Part shown: piece after piece, positions 20,271-38,135 of the stretch
Numbering within the stretch: the first letter of the stretch is position 1
Layout of the letters: each line of letters opens with the position of its first letter
Source: Escherichia phage vB-Eco-KMB26
Reading direction: 5' to 3' (one strand)
Length of the DNA: 64,000 bases
Sequence record: OR539218.1
Notes under the pieces: generated by a model
What the model was told of the DNA's origin: nothing
Database searches by the model: none
Seen by the model: the letters and a program-made list of their open reading frames with translations, nothing else
Made by a program: the position numbers and the translations under genes

Positions 20271-21239
20271 TTATTTCAGAAGAGTAACCTCAGCGATTTC
20301 TTGCCAACCGTTTTTGTCGGTCATAATAAAGTCAGCAAGATAAAGTGCAGTACGCAGTGAAACATTGCGTAAACGGTTAACATTGACTTTCATCCATGAT
20401 AATGCTTTATAAGTTTCTTCATCAGAAAGACCGCGCTTTTGCATCATGTCAGTTGAAAGAATAACATCTTCAACCCTGACCATAATTTCTTCATTAGTGT
20501 GAACACCCAAATCCAAATAAACCGAGCGGGACACTAATGCTTGTAAATGTGGAGCAAGTTTAGTACCACGGTCTAATTCGCGGTCAATGTCAACGTTTGT
20601 GATAAAAACAATCGTTCCTTTAAATTCAAACTCACGCTCAATGCCTTTTTCTTCTAAGTAAGAAGATGCGGTGCTCCAGCAGACTTTACGGGTCTCTCCA
20701 GTGTCCAGAGCAGCTTTCAGAAGATTAAGAATGTCCATATCAGAGAAAACATCCACATCATCAATCAAAAGGACAGAATTCTCTTCACGATTATTCCAAA
20801 GTTGTTCATAAAGACCGATACCGGAGATTTTACCGTTAATGCTTTTATATTCAATGTATCCATTATCATTTGCTTTATTCAAAGCTTTATCTAAAGAATA
20901 CGTTTTACCAATACCCGCCGCACCAGAGATAATTAATGAACGAATGTTTCCGTTAATAATACCATTCGTCATCATTCCCATAACATTAAATCTTTTATTA
21001 ATGCGGGTTTTCATATCTTCATATGATTCTTTAACTTCTTCAACTTTTACACCATCATATGAAATGTCTGATTTGTAAACCCAAACACCGCGACGCTTAC
21101 CGTCAATTTCAACAAAAACTTTACCATCTCCTTGTGCATCTACCGGAGCATTATCTGGGAACCATTCACCTAAGAGCTCAAAAGTTCCAGAGATTTCTTT
21201 ACCGAAGTAGATACCCTTATTGATAGTTACAGTTTTCAT
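20271..21239 (-). CDS. P-loop NTPase (ORF track extends to 21257)
   Basis: Walker A GAAGIGKT and Walker B LLIDDVD; start at MKTVTINKG after GGAG RBS. Confidence 0.65.
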   Translation of the reverse strand: MKTVTINKGIYFGKEISGTFELLGEWFPDNAPVDAQGDGKVFVEIDGKRRGVWVYKSDISYDGVKVEEVKESYEDMKTRINKRFNVMGMMTNGIINGNIRSLIISGAAGIGKTYSLDKALNKANDNGYIEYKSINGKISGIGLYEQLWNNREENSVLLIDDVDVFSDMDILNLLKAALDTGETRKVCWSTASSYLEEKGIEREFEFKGTIVFITNVDIDRELDRGTKLAPHLQALVSRSVYLDLGVHTNEEIMVRVEDVILSTDMMQKRGLSDEETYKALSWMKVNVNRLRNVSLRTALYLADFIMTDKNGWQEIAEVTLLK

Positions 21240-21265
21240 TTTATTCTCCAATCTCACATTTGTTT

Positions 21266-21308: not shown

Positions 21309-21572
21309 TTATTTTAACGTTCGCCAAATTTTTACTGCTTCACGGCGAGATACTTCTACAGCTCCAAGTTCTACAGCTTTTTGGCGTCGGCGAGCGTGTA
21401 AGTCATAATGTTTAATGCGTTTATCTTGAAACCAAGAACGTTTCATTCCTATTGCTTCTGCCATTTCATGAAGCTCTTCAATATCTCCATCAGTGAACAT
21501 ATGACAATTTTTAGTTGGATGACCGCGAAGTTTCCATCCATGATTCATTAAAACATCTACGTAAACTGTCAT
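21309..21572 (-). CDS. Hypothetical protein
   Basis: 87-aa ORF. Confidence 0.5.
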   Translation of the reverse strand: MTVYVDVLMNHGWKLRGHPTKNCHMFTDGDIEELHEMAEAIGMKRSWFQDKRIKHYDLHARRRQKAVELGAVEVSRREAVKIWRTLK

Positions 21573-21718
21573 TGATTCTTCTCCAAATAAGTTTCGATAA
21601 TTTTCTGAGCGAGATAAACTGCATTATCTTCAGTTGCATCTTCTAAGAAACTTTCAAAACACTCTGAAATTTCTTCTGTATCAATCAACTTTTTTACTTC
21701 AATTGGTGTAATTTTCAT
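21569..21718 (-). CDS. Small acidic protein (ORF track extends to 21787, but the early promoter lies inside that extension)
   Basis: Start MKITPIEVKK chosen downstream of the promoter at 21747-21785. Confidence 0.45.
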   Translation of the reverse strand: MKITPIEVKKLIDTEEISECFESFLEDATEDNAVYLAQKIIETYLEKNQ

Positions 21719-21746
21719 TTTGTTTTTCCGTTTAAGTGTTTGTTTT

Positions 21747-21785
21747 GATAGTTGTATAGTACCATAAAGCTTTATGCTTGTAAAC
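21747..21785 (-). promoter_or_regulatory. Early promoter (-35 GTTTAC, -10 TACTAT)
   Basis: Motif gatagttgtatagtacc...gtaaac. Confidence 0.55.
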
Positions 21786-21815
21786 AATTTTGTGAAAAAT
21801 TTTTGAAATAAAAAA

Positions 21816-21833
21816 GGGAGCCCGAAGGCTCCC
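21816..21833 (-). terminator. C(UUCG)G-type hairpin GGGAGCCttcgGGCTCCC
   Basis: 7-bp GC-rich stem; adjacent A/T run. Confidence 0.55.
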
Positions 21834-21835
21834 TA

Positions 21836-22849
21836 TCATTTATAATAACTTCGGTGGTTTTCAAGATAAACCCTCTCAAGGAAGTCATCCCAAAAACCCA
21901 TGTCTACTTTTTGCTGCATACCGTTCTTAGAAGCTTCAGTAGATGCTGCTTCTACTTGATCGACCACATCTTCCAAAAACTCTTGAACCGTTTTAAATGG
22001 ATGTTTACCCAACTTCACGTCGAGAATAAATGGAGCATCTTGGAGTGGATAAACCAAGTCACCAGTTTTGTAAATTTCCAATAGTTGGAGTCCACCACGG
22101 CAAGCATGACTCAGAGCTTTCCAGTCAATACCTTCATTGGCTTCGGCCTTACGAGCACGTTCACCGTATTCAGCATCTAATTTGTTCAGTGACTGCTTAA
22201 GCTCAATAAGAGAAAGCGTTGTCTGATATTTACGACCCAACACTGTGTAGAACGTCTGTGGGCCTGTTTTCTCATGATTATGGAACACCCATTCACAGAA
22301 TTCGTTTTCTGGAAGACGATGCTTAATATCTTCAACTTTAGTACGACGCTGCTTAATAGAACCATCTTCTTGGTAATCAACCCATTGCTCAGGGATTTGA
22401 TTAACTACTTTCAATACATCACGTAATGCAGCCAAACGAGAACCCTTAACGCCGTATTTAGAAGCTTGCTTACGGACATATCCTAAATAGGATTTCATGT
22501 TAGTCGTATAAAAACGAGAACGGTTGTCTTGAATAAACTTCCACACATCAGGCAAATCAGATTTAACCACTAGTTCAGGTGGAGTGTGAAGCATATCTAA
22601 CGCTACAGTTTCACCATCTGCTGCTAATTTAAAGAAATATTTAAGACTGTATAGTTCATGGTCAATATCATCTTTAGTGTTTTTAGATGATGTGTTGTTA
22701 GTGTTTTTACTCATGTGCTCTTTAACATTTCCGATAAGAATATCACGAGCAGGAGGAACAAAGATTTCTTTAAAATCTACATCAGATTCTGGGGTAGAAG
22801 TTCCATAAAGATGACTACCAAAATAGCTTTTCATTACTGTTTTCATCAT
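21836..22849 (-). CDS. Predicted nucleotidyltransferase-fold protein
   Basis: 337 aa; N-terminal GSx10DVD motif (YFGSHLYGTSTPESDVDF) typical of pol-beta-superfamily NTases. Confidence 0.5.
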   Translation of the reverse strand: MMKTVMKSYFGSHLYGTSTPESDVDFKEIFVPPARDILIGNVKEHMSKNTNNTSSKNTKDDIDHELYSLKYFFKLAADGETVALDMLHTPPELVVKSDLPDVWKFIQDNRSRFYTTNMKSYLGYVRKQASKYGVKGSRLAALRDVLKVVNQIPEQWVDYQEDGSIKQRRTKVEDIKHRLPENEFCEWVFHNHEKTGPQTFYTVLGRKYQTTLSLIELKQSLNKLDAEYGERARKAEANEGIDWKALSHACRGGLQLLEIYKTGDLVYPLQDAPFILDVKLGKHPFKTVQEFLEDVVDQVEAASTEASKNGMQQKVDMGFWDDFLERVYLENHRSYYK

Positions 22850-23307
22850 TCAGCCTTATATTCAATAACAGGACATACTTTAGCTTTACGAGCTTTTAAA
22901 AATTCAACGATAATCGATTTCTTGGGTTGAATAGGAGGTAAACCTTTATACGCCCTATCAATATTTTCTACGTGTAAAGCATAATCCTTTTTCCATTTAT
23001 AATCTTTATATTTTTCACGCAGTTGTGCAGGAATAACAAATGAACCGATAATAAGTAAAACAAGCAAAATGGCAAGTATAAATGCTGATGGAATAAGAGT
23101 CCATAAACTACCAAAAATAAGCCATTTCTGTATGATTTCTGCGCAGATGATAGTTAGACCTACGAGTATAGTACATCCGAAAAAAGAAACGAAAAATGTA
23201 GGGATAACAATAGACCAAAAGTATGCGCACAGCGTCTTAGGTCGTTGCCATTCATCGTTAAACAATTTGAATAATTTATAGTGCCAAGAGTTTTCATTAA
23301 TAATCAT
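22846..23307 (-). CDS. Integral membrane protein
   Basis: 153 aa with about 3-4 hydrophobic helices. Confidence 0.55.
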   Translation of the reverse strand: MIINENSWHYKLFKLFNDEWQRPKTLCAYFWSIVIPTFFVSFFGCTILVGLTIICAEIIQKWLIFGSLWTLIPSAFILAILLVLLIIGSFVIPAQLREKYKDYKWKKDYALHVENIDRAYKGLPPIQPKKSIIVEFLKARKAKVCPVIEYKAE

Positions 23308-23309
23308 AA

Positions 23310-23831
23310 TTATCCTTTCATTGAAGGTGTAACAGTTGTTAAATACTTAATCATAGCTTCAGCTTCTGATTTTGATAATGAAATTTCTTCATTGTTTTGA
23401 CGAATAGAAATAAAATCCGGATGACGGTCACCACCAGCTTTTAAAACACACATATAAGTATCAGTTTCATCTTCAATATCTGAAATGATTGAAGCAGTTC
23501 CACATGAATGCGGTTTTTGATAAATCAATACAGCTTTTCTTCCGCCATTTGACTGTTCATAAACTTTTAATACATCAAACAAATCACTTCTTTTATCAAT
23601 AGCTAAAATGTTATTTTCATCTTCAATGTTAAATCCTTCGGATACTTCATAAAGTGTCACCCATAAATCGCCAATATCAATAACAGCGTTCACTTTTCCA
23701 TGACTTTCAAGAGCATGACAAATTTTCTTGATTTCGTCATAACTCATTTTAATAATATCATCTCCTTGAATAAGAAAGATGTCATTTTTAAATTCAACAC
23801 GAATTAAACCACTTCCACTTGAAATAAACAT
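23310..23831 (-). CDS. Hypothetical protein, paralog of 23838-24395
   Basis: 173 aa; C-terminus EAEAMIKYLTTVTPSMKG resembles EAIALKTYLDSVIPTMISK of the neighbour. Confidence 0.55.
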   Translation of the reverse strand: MFISSGSGLIRVEFKNDIFLIQGDDIIKMSYDEIKKICHALESHGKVNAVIDIGDLWVTLYEVSEGFNIEDENNILAIDKRSDLFDVLKVYEQSNGGRKAVLIYQKPHSCGTASIISDIEDETDTYMCVLKAGGDRHPDFISIRQNNEEISLSKSEAEAMIKYLTTVTPSMKG

Positions 23832-23837
23832 ATTTCC

Positions 23838-24395
23838 TCACTTTGAAATCATAGTTGGAATGACAGAATCGAGATAAGTCTTTAGCGCAATAGCTTCGTC
23901 TTTGGTAAATGTGACAATATACGATCGAAAATCATCAATTTGACGAATAGTTAAGACATCACCATCTTCATAGCATTTTGATACGTTTAAAACAGTTTCA
24001 TCATTCTGATTGCAAGCGTTAGTAATAATAGCATTGCAATTTTTGAGCCATTTTAAACTATGTTTTCTTTCATTAGAATAATAAAAATATTTAATCTTAT
24101 CTATAAAACTATCCCAATGGATAACTGATAAACACATTGACTCACTTTTAATATTAAATCCTGGGCATGAAGAATAAAAATGAATTTTGTGCTCATCATT
24201 GATGCTTACTATTTTATCAGTATAAGGATATTCAATTTGGGTTAAATGAATGATTTCACTAGGCGTAAAATATAGCATATCGTCTTCTTGTGTCAAACGA
24301 TACATATTATTTACTTTTTCTATAGCTAATTCACCAAAAAGCGGACTAACTTCTAATACTAATCGTTTCATATTGATTCTCTTCGACTCACCCAC
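23838..24395 (-). CDS. Hypothetical protein, paralog of 23310-23831; ORF-track start is GTG, alternative ATG at 24371
   Basis: 185-aa ORF. Confidence 0.5.
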   Translation of the reverse strand: MGESKRINMKRLVLEVSPLFGELAIEKVNNMYRLTQEDDMLYFTPSEIIHLTQIEYPYTDKIVSINDEHKIHFYSSCPGFNIKSESMCLSVIHWDSFIDKIKYFYYSNERKHSLKWLKNCNAIITNACNQNDETVLNVSKCYEDGDVLTIRQIDDFRSYIVTFTKDEAIALKTYLDSVIPTMISK

Positions 24396-24397
24396 AA

Positions 24398-24502
24398 TTA
24401 CATACTCCTTTGAATAATATCAATAATGTTGTTCACCAGATTATAAGTAAACATTGGATAATTATATTGAATCATCACATACACAACAAACAAAACTTTC
24501 AT
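24398..24502 (-). CDS. Micro-ORF (34 aa, hydrophobic) with strong AAGGAG RBS, ending 2 nt before the GTG start of the downstream gene
   Basis: Hand translation MKVLFVVYVMIQYNYPMFTYNLVNNIIDIIQRSM. Confidence 0.25.
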   Translation of the reverse strand: MKVLFVVYVMIQYNYPMFTYNLVNNIIDIIQRSM

Positions 24503-24518: not shown

Positions 24519-24552
24519 GTTGACAAGATTACTATATCATAATCTTGTCAAC
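24519..24552. repeat. Perfect 13-bp inverted repeat GTTGACAAGATTA-(8 nt)-TAATCTTGTCAAC
   Basis: Read directly; each arm contains TTGACA. Confidence 0.85.
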
Positions 24553-24562
24553 TTGTAAACCA

Positions 24563-24736
24563 TTAAATGACGTTTTCAATAAAATTCTGAAGCTTTGTGT
24601 GAGCATCAACCATGATTTTCATTTCTTCTTTGGCGAAAGCTGTACCTCTTTCCCGAGAAGAACACTCATAGTCAGAAACTGCATTAGCATATTCTTCAAT
24701 TAGTTTCATTAAAAACATCTGCTTTTCAGTTTTCAT
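24563..24736 (-). CDS. Small ORF (57 aa)
   Basis: Hand translation MKTEKQMFLMKLIEEYANAV...; below ORF-track cutoff. Confidence 0.35.
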   Translation of the reverse strand: MKTEKQMFLMKLIEEYANAVSDYECSSRERGTAFAKEEMKIMVDAHTKLQNFIENVI

Positions 24737-24920
24737 TATTCCACCTAATCATTTCAAGATATTGAACTAACTTAGCTTTGGATTTATCCAAATCCTTTTT
24801 AGCTGCTTCTATACCGTCGTATGAATATCCTTCACAATGCTCAACTGCTAATTGGTATGAATCTATTTCAATATCACGTGCTAATTTAATGATTTTTTCA
24901 AACTGTTCACGTGTTAGCAT
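24726..24920 (-). CDS. Hypothetical small protein
   Basis: 64-aa ORF. Confidence 0.5.
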   Translation of the reverse strand: MLTREQFEKIIKLARDIEIDSYQLAVEHCEGYSYDGIEAAKKDLDKSKAKLVQYLEMIRWNNEN

Positions 24921-24922
24921 AA

Positions 24923-25126
24923 TTAAACTCTCGTATTATGATCGATAATTTCATCAAGAAACATATCTAACGCTTCTAAAGCATTATCAACTTTAGCTTC
25001 AAATTTTTCAATACCTTTATTTGCAATGCCTGCCGAAAACCAAGCAAAGTCACTAAGTTCCTCATCTGCTTTGCGAATTAAAGCTACCAATTCTTTAATT
25101 TTATCTGCTTGTTCAATTCTAGTCAT
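24923..25126 (-). CDS. Hypothetical small protein; start MTRIEQAD overlaps the upstream stop (TAATG); ORF track extends to 25162
   Basis: Start context inspected by hand. Confidence 0.45.
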   Translation of the reverse strand: MTRIEQADKIKELVALIRKADEELSDFAWFSAGIANKGIEKFEAKVDNALEALDMFLDEIIDHNTRV

Positions 25127-25314
25127 TATTCCACCACATATGAAAGAGAGAATATTGCACACGCCATATGAGTTGCAGCTTCATCACACATATCATAACG
25201 TTTCTTAAGAAGTTCTACAAGTTCTTCACTAGTAACTTCATCCATGTCGACGAAAAAATCACCATTAATGATGACGTAGATATTTCCTTCTTGATTAAGT
25301 GCTTCAATTTTCAT
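25126..25314 (-). CDS. Hypothetical small acidic protein; start MKIEALN after GAGGAG RBS (ORF track extends to 25359)
   Basis: RBS and early promoter upstream. Confidence 0.5.
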
Positions 25315-25333
25315 GATGTTCTCCTCTTTATCC

Positions 25334-25372
25334 GATAGTTGTATAGTACCACAGCTCAAACGGAAAGTAAAC
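25334..25372 (-). promoter_or_regulatory. Early promoter (-35 GTTTAC, -10 TACTAT)
   Basis: Motif gatagttgtatagtacc...gtaaac. Confidence 0.55.
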
Positions 25373-37307: not shown

Positions 37308-37383
37308 TGGTCGAGGCAGTAGGGATCGAACCTACGACCCAGGACTTAGAAGGTCCTTGCTCTTCCTTCTGAGCTATGCCTCG
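37308..37383 (-). tRNA. tRNA-Arg (anticodon UCU), CCA encoded
   Basis: Hand-folded cloverleaf: 7-bp acceptor, anticodon loop cuUCUaa, T-loop TTCGATC. Confidence 0.85.
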
Positions 37384-37387
37384 TATT

Positions 37388-37462
37388 TGGCGGACGTGAT
37401 AGGATTCGAACCTATAACCAATCGCTTAACAGGCGATCGCTCTGCCATTGAGCTACACATCC
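37388..37462 (-). tRNA. tRNA-Asn (anticodon GUU), CCA encoded
   Basis: Hand-folded cloverleaf; anticodon loop cuGUUaa. Confidence 0.8.
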
Positions 37463-37466
37463 AAAT

Positions 37467-37553
37467 TGGTGGGGAGTGGTGGAGTCGAACCACCCGAGTC
37501 GCAATGACAATGAATTTACAGTCCACACCGCTACCTCTACGGGATAACTCCCC
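37467..37553 (-). tRNA. tRNA-Tyr (anticodon GUA), long variable arm, CCA encoded
   Basis: Anticodon loop cuGUAaa; 87 nt; perfect acceptor stem. Confidence 0.7.
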
Positions 37554-37562
37554 AAATTAATT

Positions 37563-37637
37563 TGGTGGCCCTGGGTGGAATTGAACCACCATCTGGCGAT
37601 TATGAGTCGCTTGCTTGAACCTTCCAGCTACAGGGCC
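37563..37637 (-). tRNA. tRNA with CAU anticodon (most likely the AUA-reading tRNA-Ile by position; Met not excluded)
   Basis: Perfect 7-bp acceptor; anticodon loop cuCAUaa; position matches T4 tRNA-Ile. Confidence 0.7.
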
Positions 37638-37638
37638 T

Positions 37639-37714
37639 TGGTGCTGATTGACGGAATCGAACCGCCGACCTTCTCATTACAAGTGAGTTGCTCTACCTAC
37701 TGAGCTAAATCAGC
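37639..37714 (-). tRNA. tRNA-Thr (anticodon UGU)
   Basis: Hand-folded; anticodon loop cuUGUaa. Confidence 0.85.
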
Positions 37715-37719
37715 AAAAC

Positions 37720-37809
37720 TGGCGGAGGCGATAGGATTTGAACCTATGAGTCGCCGGAGCGACTGCCGGTTTTCAAGACCGGTGCATTAAACCACTCTGC
37801 CACGCCTCC
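37720..37809 (-). tRNA. tRNA-Ser (anticodon UGA), long variable arm
   Basis: 90 nt; anticodon stem CCGGU/ACCGG; loop cuUGAaa. Confidence 0.85.
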
Positions 37810-37811
37810 AG

Positions 37812-37885
37812 TCTCCGTGGCAGGATTTGAACCTACGACATTCTGCTCCCAAAGCAGACGCTCTACCAAACTGAGCTACACGGAG
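37812..37885 (-). tRNA. tRNA-Pro (anticodon UGG), no encoded CCA; abuts tRNA-Ser
   Basis: Hand-folded; anticodon loop uuUGGga. Confidence 0.85.
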
Positions 37886-37895
37886 TAAATTAAAT

Positions 37896-37969
<74 letters not shown>

Positions 37970-37974
37970 AAATT

Positions 37975-38061
37975 TGGTGCGAGAAGTGGGACTCGAACCC
38001 ACAAGGAAATCATTCCGCAGCATTTTAAGTGCTGTGCCTTTACCAATTTGGCCATTCTCGC
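37975..38061 (-). tRNA. tRNA-Leu (anticodon UAA), long variable arm
   Basis: 87 nt; anticodon stem CAGCA/UGCUG; loop cuUAAaa. Confidence 0.85.
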
Positions 38062-38062
38062 G

Positions 38063-38135
38063 CTGGGAATAAAGGACTCGAACCTTTGCATCCTGGAATC
38101 AAAATCCAGTGCCTTACCAACTTGGCTAATTCCCA
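38063..38135 (-). tRNA. tRNA-Gln (anticodon UUG), no encoded CCA; abuts tRNA-Leu
   Basis: Hand-folded; anticodon stem CUGGA/UCCAG; loop uuUUGau. Confidence 0.85.

Follow-up and report, generated by a model that had tools for sequence, protein, structure and literature searches.

RNA repair was discovered in bacteriophage T4, where Pnkp and RNA ligase 1 (Rnl1) act against the PrrC anticodon nuclease. Excision of the wobble base by RloC could defeat this combination of T4 Pnkp and Rnl1 (PMC2610378), and earlier comparative work predicts that RlaP (RNA ligase-associated Pol-beta) proteins restore nucleotides taken out by RloC-type nucleases (PMC7824862). In a preprint from 2025, T4 NrdC.11 is listed among the RlaPs and assigned to cluster 5 of their sequence network (PMC12776372). 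Here we analyze an ortholog of NrdC.11 and the three genes beside it, one for a membrane protein and two for tandem paralogs of the y05I/MobD.1 family, in a 64,000-nucleotide stretch of DNA from Escherichia phage vB-Eco-KMB26 (record OR539218.1; hereafter the window), where an earlier note, made from the sequence alone, had picked out this four-gene locus.

The activity of RlaPs has been described for the enzymes of Pseudomonas fluorescens and P. aeruginosa, which add one or two nucleoside monophosphates to an RNA 3′-hydroxyl (3′-OH) and then stop. Both prefer Mn2+, do not use DNA, and favor the 5′ half of a cleaved-tRNA mimic; moreover, by adding to a tRNA that lacks one nucleotide before it is ligated, they partly restore its aminoacylation (PMC12776372).

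NrdC.11 is an RlaP-family nucleotidyltransferase

The 337-residue product of the last gene of the locus is the ortholog of T4 NrdC.11 and belongs to the RlaP family of the Pol-beta superfamily. It is 98.5% identical over its full length to the T4 protein (NP_049709, annotated as ‘nucleotidyltransferase’) and is matched from end to end by phrog_388 (‘nucleotidyltransferase’; E 8e-137). Against Pfam RlaP (PF10127) it scores 44.3 bits, with a gathering cut-off of 23 (E 2.4e-11), its residues 7–135 corresponding to positions 23–142 of the 249 in the profile. RlaP was also matched independently by 40 of 41 diverse homologs of this nucleotidyltransferase (NTase), and a precomputed PF10127 hit is present on 120 of 120 close ones. 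When 1.84 billion cluster representatives were searched exhaustively with a profile, 3,665 related clusters emerged, including 1,048 at E ≤ 1e-30 that are mostly full length.

The Pol-beta motif hG[GS]x9-13DxD is present in the protein as G11-S12, ten residues and D23-V24-D25. This is exactly the GSx10DVD signature that the earlier note had reported, and two lines of evidence take it beyond chance: the Pfam RlaP match and the conservation of G11, S12, D23 and D25, each of which is kept in at least 99% of 145 homologs of 33–54% identity drawn from the related clusters of the profile search. In the same set, conservation of 86–100% is found at G11, S12, Y15, G16, S22, D23, D25, N57, D61, D63, G79, D85, Y124, Q128, K131, Y132, K135, G136, R138, G229, R231, D242, W243, K244, H248, R251, P268, K279 and G281. 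Three of these acidic residues, D61, D63 and D85 (94–97% conserved), are candidates for a third catalytic aspartate, and the C-terminal half of the protein is predicted to be helical. As the earlier note had proposed, the protein is thus a Pol-beta-superfamily NTase; its catalytic aspartates align with an established NTase family, RlaP, a point on which that note had made its own reading depend.

Some cellular homologs of NrdC.11 lie beside RNA-repair genes

The genomic neighbourhoods of NrdC.11-type homologs, which are new evidence in this analysis, extend the link with RNA healing and sealing enzymes from the Pseudomonas enzymes to the phage-type sub-clade itself. One genome per bacterial or archaeal species was scanned, which gave 156 confirmed relatives. 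Neighbourhood counts refer to the best 80 of these loci, which encode full-length NrdC.11-type homologs of 32–54% identity and in many cases lie on megabase contigs; open reading frames (ORFs) within 6 kb of the NTase gene were called and clustered, and recurrent families were annotated. At least one RNA-repair gene (RtcB, RtcA, Pnkp, Hen1 or Ro60) is found within this distance in 15 of the 80 loci, with RtcB in nine, bacterial Pnkp in five, Hen1 in four, Ro60/TROVE in three and RtcA in one. No neighbour family recurs more often than RtcB; the histidine kinases, a very large family, recur equally often.

Several of the RNA-repair genes are directly adjacent to the NTase gene and co-directional with it. 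Pnkp lies directly upstream in loci L063, L083 and L089, preceded in the last two by Hen1 so that the order is Hen1–Pnkp–NTase, and a Ro60–NTase order is seen in L022 and L064. On a contig of an uncultured Nitrosospira (L046, 1558–9161), the succession Ro60/TROVE–RtcB–RtcA–NrdC.11-type NTase–Hen1 is a compact RNA-repair super-operon that joins Rsr/RtcBA and Pnkp/Hen1 components around the NTase.

Among phages, homologs of T4 Pnkp are found in 2,536 records. The record counts per genus for Pnkp versus NrdC.11 (Escherichia, 679 versus 640; Shigella, 84 versus 83; Aeromonas, 77 versus 75; Acinetobacter, 70 versus 69; Enterobacter, 57 versus 56) are consistent with the joint presence of the two enzymes in T4-like genomes.

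A proposed role in phage tRNA repair

We propose that NrdC.11 adds a nucleotide back in phage tRNA repair, a reading that we consider probable and the most likely of those weighed here. The enzyme would act as a non-templated RNA 3′-end nucleotidyltransferase whenever a host anticodon nuclease cuts a tRNA and also trims a nucleotide from it, as RloC does with the wobble base: phage Pnkp would heal the tRNA ends, NrdC.11 would put the nucleotide back and Rnl1 would seal the break. The 3′-OH product of NrdC.11 would suit a 5′-phosphate ligase such as Rnl1, as suggested by the discussion in the preprint together with what is established for Rnl1. The membrane protein and the two MobD.1-family paralogs, with their predicted PUR/Whirly fold, would then be co-transcribed neighbours in a highly plastic early region and not required partners.

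Among the roles that the earlier note had listed, modification of tRNA or other RNA ends is the one best supported, by the RlaP family match, the biochemistry of RlaPs (PMC12776372) and the bacterial RNA-repair operons. The anti-defence role that it had raised becomes plausible by way of the repair of tRNAs cut by anticodon nucleases, an anti-nuclease function that we infer for the NrdC.11 clade along with its activity and its substrate. The T4 segment from nrdC.11 to mobD.3 can be deleted (PMC9825161), which fits a conditional, host-dependent role.

Several observations weigh against this proposal. The biochemistry of RlaP comes from the two Pseudomonas enzymes, which belong to another cluster (1a) than NrdC.11, and non-templated addition mostly inserts wrong nucleotides, as the authors of the preprint concede (PMC12776372). 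The Pfam RlaP match covers only residues 7–135 of the NTase. Its structure model, with a predicted local distance difference test score (pLDDT) of 53 and the N-terminal domain unmodelled, places neither the third carboxylate nor the C-terminal domain, and no solved relative was detected in the PDB by sequence search, whether from the single protein, a shallow profile or a diverse profile. In the phage, the NTase gene is not adjacent to the Pnkp or RNA ligase genes; among the cellular loci, 65 of the 80 have heterogeneous neighbours and no RNA-repair gene among them.

The lack of linkage between the phage NTase gene and ligase or kinase genes would also suit an enzyme that acts on RNA 3′ ends in another way, by repairing the 3′-CCA of tRNAs or by tailing host or phage transcripts and thereby altering their stability. 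In line with such activities, the window encodes ten phage tRNAs, and in vitro the characterized RlaPs label rRNA, full-length tRNA and single-stranded RNA with little specificity for the nucleoside triphosphate (PMC12776372). However, their arrest after one or two additions and their preference for the 5′ half of a cleaved-tRNA mimic speak against such roles (PMC12776372), and the informative neighbours of the cellular homologs are healing and sealing enzymes (RtcB, Pnkp/Hen1, RtcA and Ro60) rather than CCA-adding or decay factors; we regard these other RNA-end roles as unlikely.

Organization of the locus

The region belongs to a Tequatrovirus, that is, a T4-like phage: a megablast query with window positions 21700–24500 retrieved 663 phage records, and Escherichia phage vB_EcoM-fFiEco06 is 100% identical among the best matches. 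The flanking ORFs correspond to the T4 genes tk, rI.1, rI, rI.-1, mobD.5–mobD.1 and nrdC.11–nrdC.4, all on the minus strand, and the four genes lie between nrdC and tk, in a plastic stretch of early genes. The four ORFs are where the earlier note had placed them (Table 1). For MobD.1, the RefSeq annotation of the identical phage uses an ATG at 24371 as the start, which gives a product of 177 residues.

Table 1. Features of the nrdC.11 locus (window coordinates; aa, amino acids)
Feature	Position	Strand	Basis
Terminator-like hairpin GGGAGCC-TTCG-GGCTCCC followed by a T-run, directly 3′ of the NTase stop codon	21815..21834	-	Consensus scan and sequence reading; putative terminator
NrdC.11 ortholog, RlaP-family (PF10127) Pol-beta nucleotidyltransferase, 337 aa	21836..22849	-	Identity to T4, Pfam, phrog_388, homolog conservation
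Membrane protein, 153 aa (phrog_944)	22846..23307	-	ORF list, phrog match, hydrophobicity, conserved motifs
Second y05I/MobD.1-like paralog, 173 aa (PF24449 + PF24448), predicted PUR-alpha/Whirly-like fold	23310..23831	-	
MobD.1 (T4 Y05I) ortholog, 185 aa from GTG (PF24449 + PF24448)	23838..24395	-	Identity to T4, Pfam
mobD.2 small ORF, 34 aa, first gene after the promoter-like site	24398..24502	-	RefSeq annotation of the identical phage, sequence
Early-promoter-like site GTTTACA, 17 nt, TG-TATAGT	24531..24559	-	Consensus scan, 10/12 matches, extended -10; consensus match only

The earlier note had the NTase gene followed by the other three in one operon. On the minus strand, the order of transcription is MobD.1, the 173-residue paralog, the membrane protein and, last, the NTase, which rules out a reading of the NTase as the first gene with the others downstream of it. 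The operon itself fares better. In transcription order, the junctions measure 6 nucleotides, 2 nucleotides and a 4-nucleotide ATGA overlap between the stop codon of the membrane-protein gene and the start codon of the NTase gene; together with the early-promoter-like site upstream of mobD.2 and the terminator-like hairpin, these tight junctions make a single transcription unit plausible. One transcript could plausibly run from mobD.2 to nrdC.11 and start at the promoter-like site, the candidate promoter and terminator both being consensus matches only.

Proteins encoded upstream of NrdC.11

The paralog pair, which the earlier note had recognized from similar C-termini, is real and extends over the whole length of the two proteins (BLASTP, 27% identity over 176 columns, E 2e-9). 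Both match PF24449 (T4_y05I_N) and PF24448 (T4_y05I_C), whose cut-offs are 24.9 and 27, respectively: the 173-residue paralog with 118.5 and 82.8 bits, and the 185-residue MobD.1 with 133.8 bits (E 4e-39) and 73.8 bits (E 1e-20). MobD.1 is 85.8% identical to its T4 counterpart (UniProt Y05I). Homologs of the 173-residue paralog amount to 13 proteins in a word-index search and 47 clusters in a profile search, all from T-even-type phages, and on these searches the y05I family appears narrow and confined to T-even-type coliphages.

An AlphaFold2 model of the 173-residue paralog has a pLDDT of 76.5, with values from the 80s to the low 90s over the N-terminal 95 residues. In its secondary structure, three repeats of strand-strand-strand-(strand)-helix are predicted, an arrangement shared with Pur-alpha; confidence in the third repeat is only moderate. 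The model conforms to the beta-beta-beta-beta-alpha repeat fold of PUR-alpha/Whirly-like binders. The fold matches of the model belong mostly to the Whirly/PUR class (Pur-alpha 3k44, MRP1/2 2gia, p24 1l3a, StWhy2 3n1h and SsgA 3cm1). Identity in the structural alignments is only 9–15%, the C-terminal domain being moderately confident, and a Pfam scan of the paralogs found only the y05I domains and a sub-threshold DUF7189 match, with no match to a PurA or Whirly family. The predicted likeness is thus one of fold only, and single-strand nucleic-acid binding is putative. The Pfam label ‘putative transcription factor’ presumably reflects this PUR/Whirly resemblance.

Rearranged versions of the y05I genes occur in related sequences. 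Six metagenomic contigs carry a single chimeric gene, made of the MobD.1 N-half and the C-half of the 173-residue copy and followed by the membrane-protein and RlaP genes (for example, protein P0131, positions 3001–3540 of contigs L092 and L093); it looks like the outcome of unequal crossing-over between the tandem paralogs. On a low-coverage contig (L094, 1149–1781; protein P0168), the first ~50 residues of MobD.1 are fused to NrdC.11 from about residue 192, with loss of the 173-residue paralog, the membrane-protein gene and the catalytic NTase domain; this may be a deletion that arose in nature or an error of assembly. In Klebsiella phage Roth76 (L005, 1099–1320), a 73-residue ORF, whose sole match is to the C-terminal y05I domain, immediately precedes the membrane-protein homolog, and stand-alone proteins of this domain are also found in Yersinia phage fHe-Yen9-01. 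The third y05I repeat may be an independent functional unit.

The 153-residue protein is, as claimed, a multi-pass membrane protein: its continuous hydrophobic core of 74 residues (25–98) has room for two to four spans, and its C-terminal tail is basic (15 K/R versus 8 D/E). It belongs to phrog_944 and matches no known family above threshold (sub-threshold Pfam matches only; none in NCBIfam). A comparison with homologs from Mosigvirus, Dhakavirus, one Klebsiella phage and one Acinetobacter phage reveals an N-terminal MxINxxSWH motif, LCxY and a C-terminal KARKxKxCP, including two invariant cysteines.

The NTase is conserved independently of its neighbours

Gene counts were obtained by tblastn over 50,697 phage records. 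The NTase is found in 1,564 of them, from phages of Escherichia, Klebsiella, Aeromonas, Acinetobacter, Vibrio and Sinorhizobium; the membrane protein in 929; MobD.1 in 728; and the 173-residue paralog in 478, including 433 with true orthologs (at least 90% identity). The full 2.8-kb four-gene arrangement is limited to 430 records, all of T4-type relatives. Almost every T4-like phage thus has the NTase, and its three neighbours, which are dispensable, are distributed progressively more narrowly.

Individual genomes illustrate the variability. Mosigvirus and Dhakavirus have one y05I gene followed by the membrane-protein gene and the NTase gene. In T4 and 46 other records, the gene for the HNH homing endonuclease MobD exactly replaces the membrane-protein gene and the 173-residue paralog; tblastn shows no trace of either gene in T4, which rules out a gap in annotation. 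The membrane-plus-paralog allele accounts for 449 records and the mobD allele for 47. In T2, both y05I paralogs are frameshifted pseudogenes and the NTase gene is intact. A Klebsiella phage and an Acinetobacter phage have the membrane-protein homolog upstream of the NTase gene with other genes in between, and the NTase occurs without any of the three neighbours in Slopekvirus, Aeromonas, Vibrio and Sinorhizobium phages.

These distributions bear on the suggestion, made in the earlier note, that the four genes are one functional module, in which the MobD.1 paralogs would bind single-stranded RNA such as tRNA halves, the membrane protein would localize or regulate the complex and the NTase would act on the bound RNA. 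The close packing of the co-directional genes, their ATGA overlap and the promoter-like and terminator-like elements that bound them are in keeping with such a module, as is the resemblance in fold of the modelled paralog to single-strand nucleic-acid binders. Three T-even genera, Tequatrovirus, Mosigvirus and Dhakavirus, also share the order y05I, membrane protein, NTase, and the membrane-protein homolog stays upstream of the NTase in the Klebsiella and Acinetobacter T4-like phages; however, because T-even genomes are generally syntenic, a conserved order is weak evidence of shared function. The four genes do not occur together in every phage that has the NTase: the distribution is nested (1564, 929, 728 and ~430 records), T4 lacks two of the genes and carries mobD instead, T2 keeps an intact NTase beside broken paralogs, and the more distant phages have the NTase alone. 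Moreover, no y05I-like family appears in the neighbour tally of the 80 bacterial homologs, where the membrane family, which has no Pfam model, was not searched. Co-conservation among relatives, which the note had offered as a check, therefore largely fails for the four genes and survives as three-gene synteny in three genera, and a four-gene module is decidedly unlikely.

It is just as improbable that the NTase modifies a non-RNA target (by small-molecule or protein AMPylation, as MNT antitoxins and aminoglycoside NTases do), makes or destroys a signalling nucleotide, or directly interferes with host immune signalling: neither NCBIfam nor PADLOC matched any of the four proteins, no CD-NTase/SMODS family, HEPN partner or defence-system model matched any of the genes in Pfam, NCBIfam or PADLOC, and nothing pointed to the nucleotide-signal or toxin/antitoxin-like roles that the earlier note had listed. 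Least likely of all, and highly improbable in our view, is an unrecognized counter-defence cassette against nucleotide-excising anticodon nucleases, formed by the y05I–membrane–RlaP core of the three T-even genera, in which the PUR-like MobD.1-family proteins would bind tRNA ends that are broken or single-stranded and pass them to NrdC.11, and the membrane protein would be accessory.

Flanking genes and tRNAs

The interval between nrdC.11 and nrdC.10 is a second variable insertion point adjoining the NTase gene. In the window (21309–21787, minus strand) it holds a DUF4031 gene (87 residues, Pfam E 8e-22) and a 72-residue ORF. The DUF4031 gene is not found at this site in T4, and the 72-residue ORF has only a weak, overlapping tblastn trace in T4 and T2 (47% identity); T2 and some metagenomic relatives have a gene for a Mod-like ADP-ribosyltransferase there instead. 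NrdC.10 itself (window 20271–21257, minus strand) is a 328-residue P-loop ATPase, and its AAA and STAND-NTPase matches are weak and in every case sub-threshold. It is found close downstream of NrdC.11, at 66–99% identity, in Tequatrovirus, Mosigvirus, Dhakavirus, one Klebsiella phage and one Acinetobacter phage; NrdC.11 keeps this neighbour over a wider range of phages than it keeps its three upstream genes.

Upstream of MobD.1, mobD.2a–mobD.5 (window ~24563–25360, minus strand; 1818–2731 in L092) form a tandem paralog array, with precomputed Pfam DUF7438 matches on four to five consecutive products of 57–67 residues and Tk.2-type genes further upstream. Ten tRNA genes at 37308–38135 (minus strand; Arg, Asn, Tyr, Met/Ile(CAT), Thr, Ser, Pro, Gly, Leu and Gln) explain a peak in GC content at 36–38 kb. 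Since T4 has eight tRNAs, those for Asn and Tyr are apparently extra in this phage; tRNA-Asn and tRNA-Tyr are among the targets of colicin E5-type anticodon nucleases.

Comparison with known systems

NrdC.11 is a named and annotated T4 gene in a characterized family, so that its identification was already known, and the idea that it restores nucleotides is already in the literature. What is added here is that the NrdC.11 sub-clade sits in bacterial RNA-repair operons, that the enzyme is near-universal in T4-like phages and that the three genes upstream of it vary and can be dispensed with; interest now centres on the predicted PUR-like fold of MobD.1-family proteins and on the putative role of NrdC.11 in T4 RNA repair. 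A three-enzyme repair pathway would exist in T4-like phages if NrdC.11 did put back the lost nucleotide, and a simple phage knockout could then test whether RloC is an antiviral device.

With respect to T4, the position of the gene is unchanged, with nrdC.10 on its downstream side and the mobD.x genes on its upstream side. Two intervals around it differ. In T4, nrdC.11 is preceded by the free-standing HNH homing endonuclease gene mobD, which fills the exact interval to mobD.1 and is absent here; in this phage it is preceded by the membrane-protein gene and the second y05I paralog, a diverged copy confined to non-T4 Tequatroviruses and missing from T4. On the other side, unlike in T4, the DUF4031 gene and the 72-residue ORF separate nrdC.11 from nrdC.10.

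With respect to RlaPs, the protein shares with the family the GS...DxD motif and conserved downstream aspartates. Its predicted arrangement, an N-terminal NTase domain and a helical C-terminal half, may resemble that in the crystal structure of PfRlaP, in which an N-terminal NTase domain and a C-terminal helical domain form a cleft. NrdC.11 falls in cluster 5 of the RlaP network and the characterized Pseudomonas enzymes in cluster 1a (PMC12776372). In this phage, the RlaP gene has no adjoining ligase gene and Pnkp is encoded elsewhere in the genome; among the bacterial homologs of the NrdC.11 clade, the association of RlaPs with RNA ligase and RNA-repair genes holds (15 of 80 loci).

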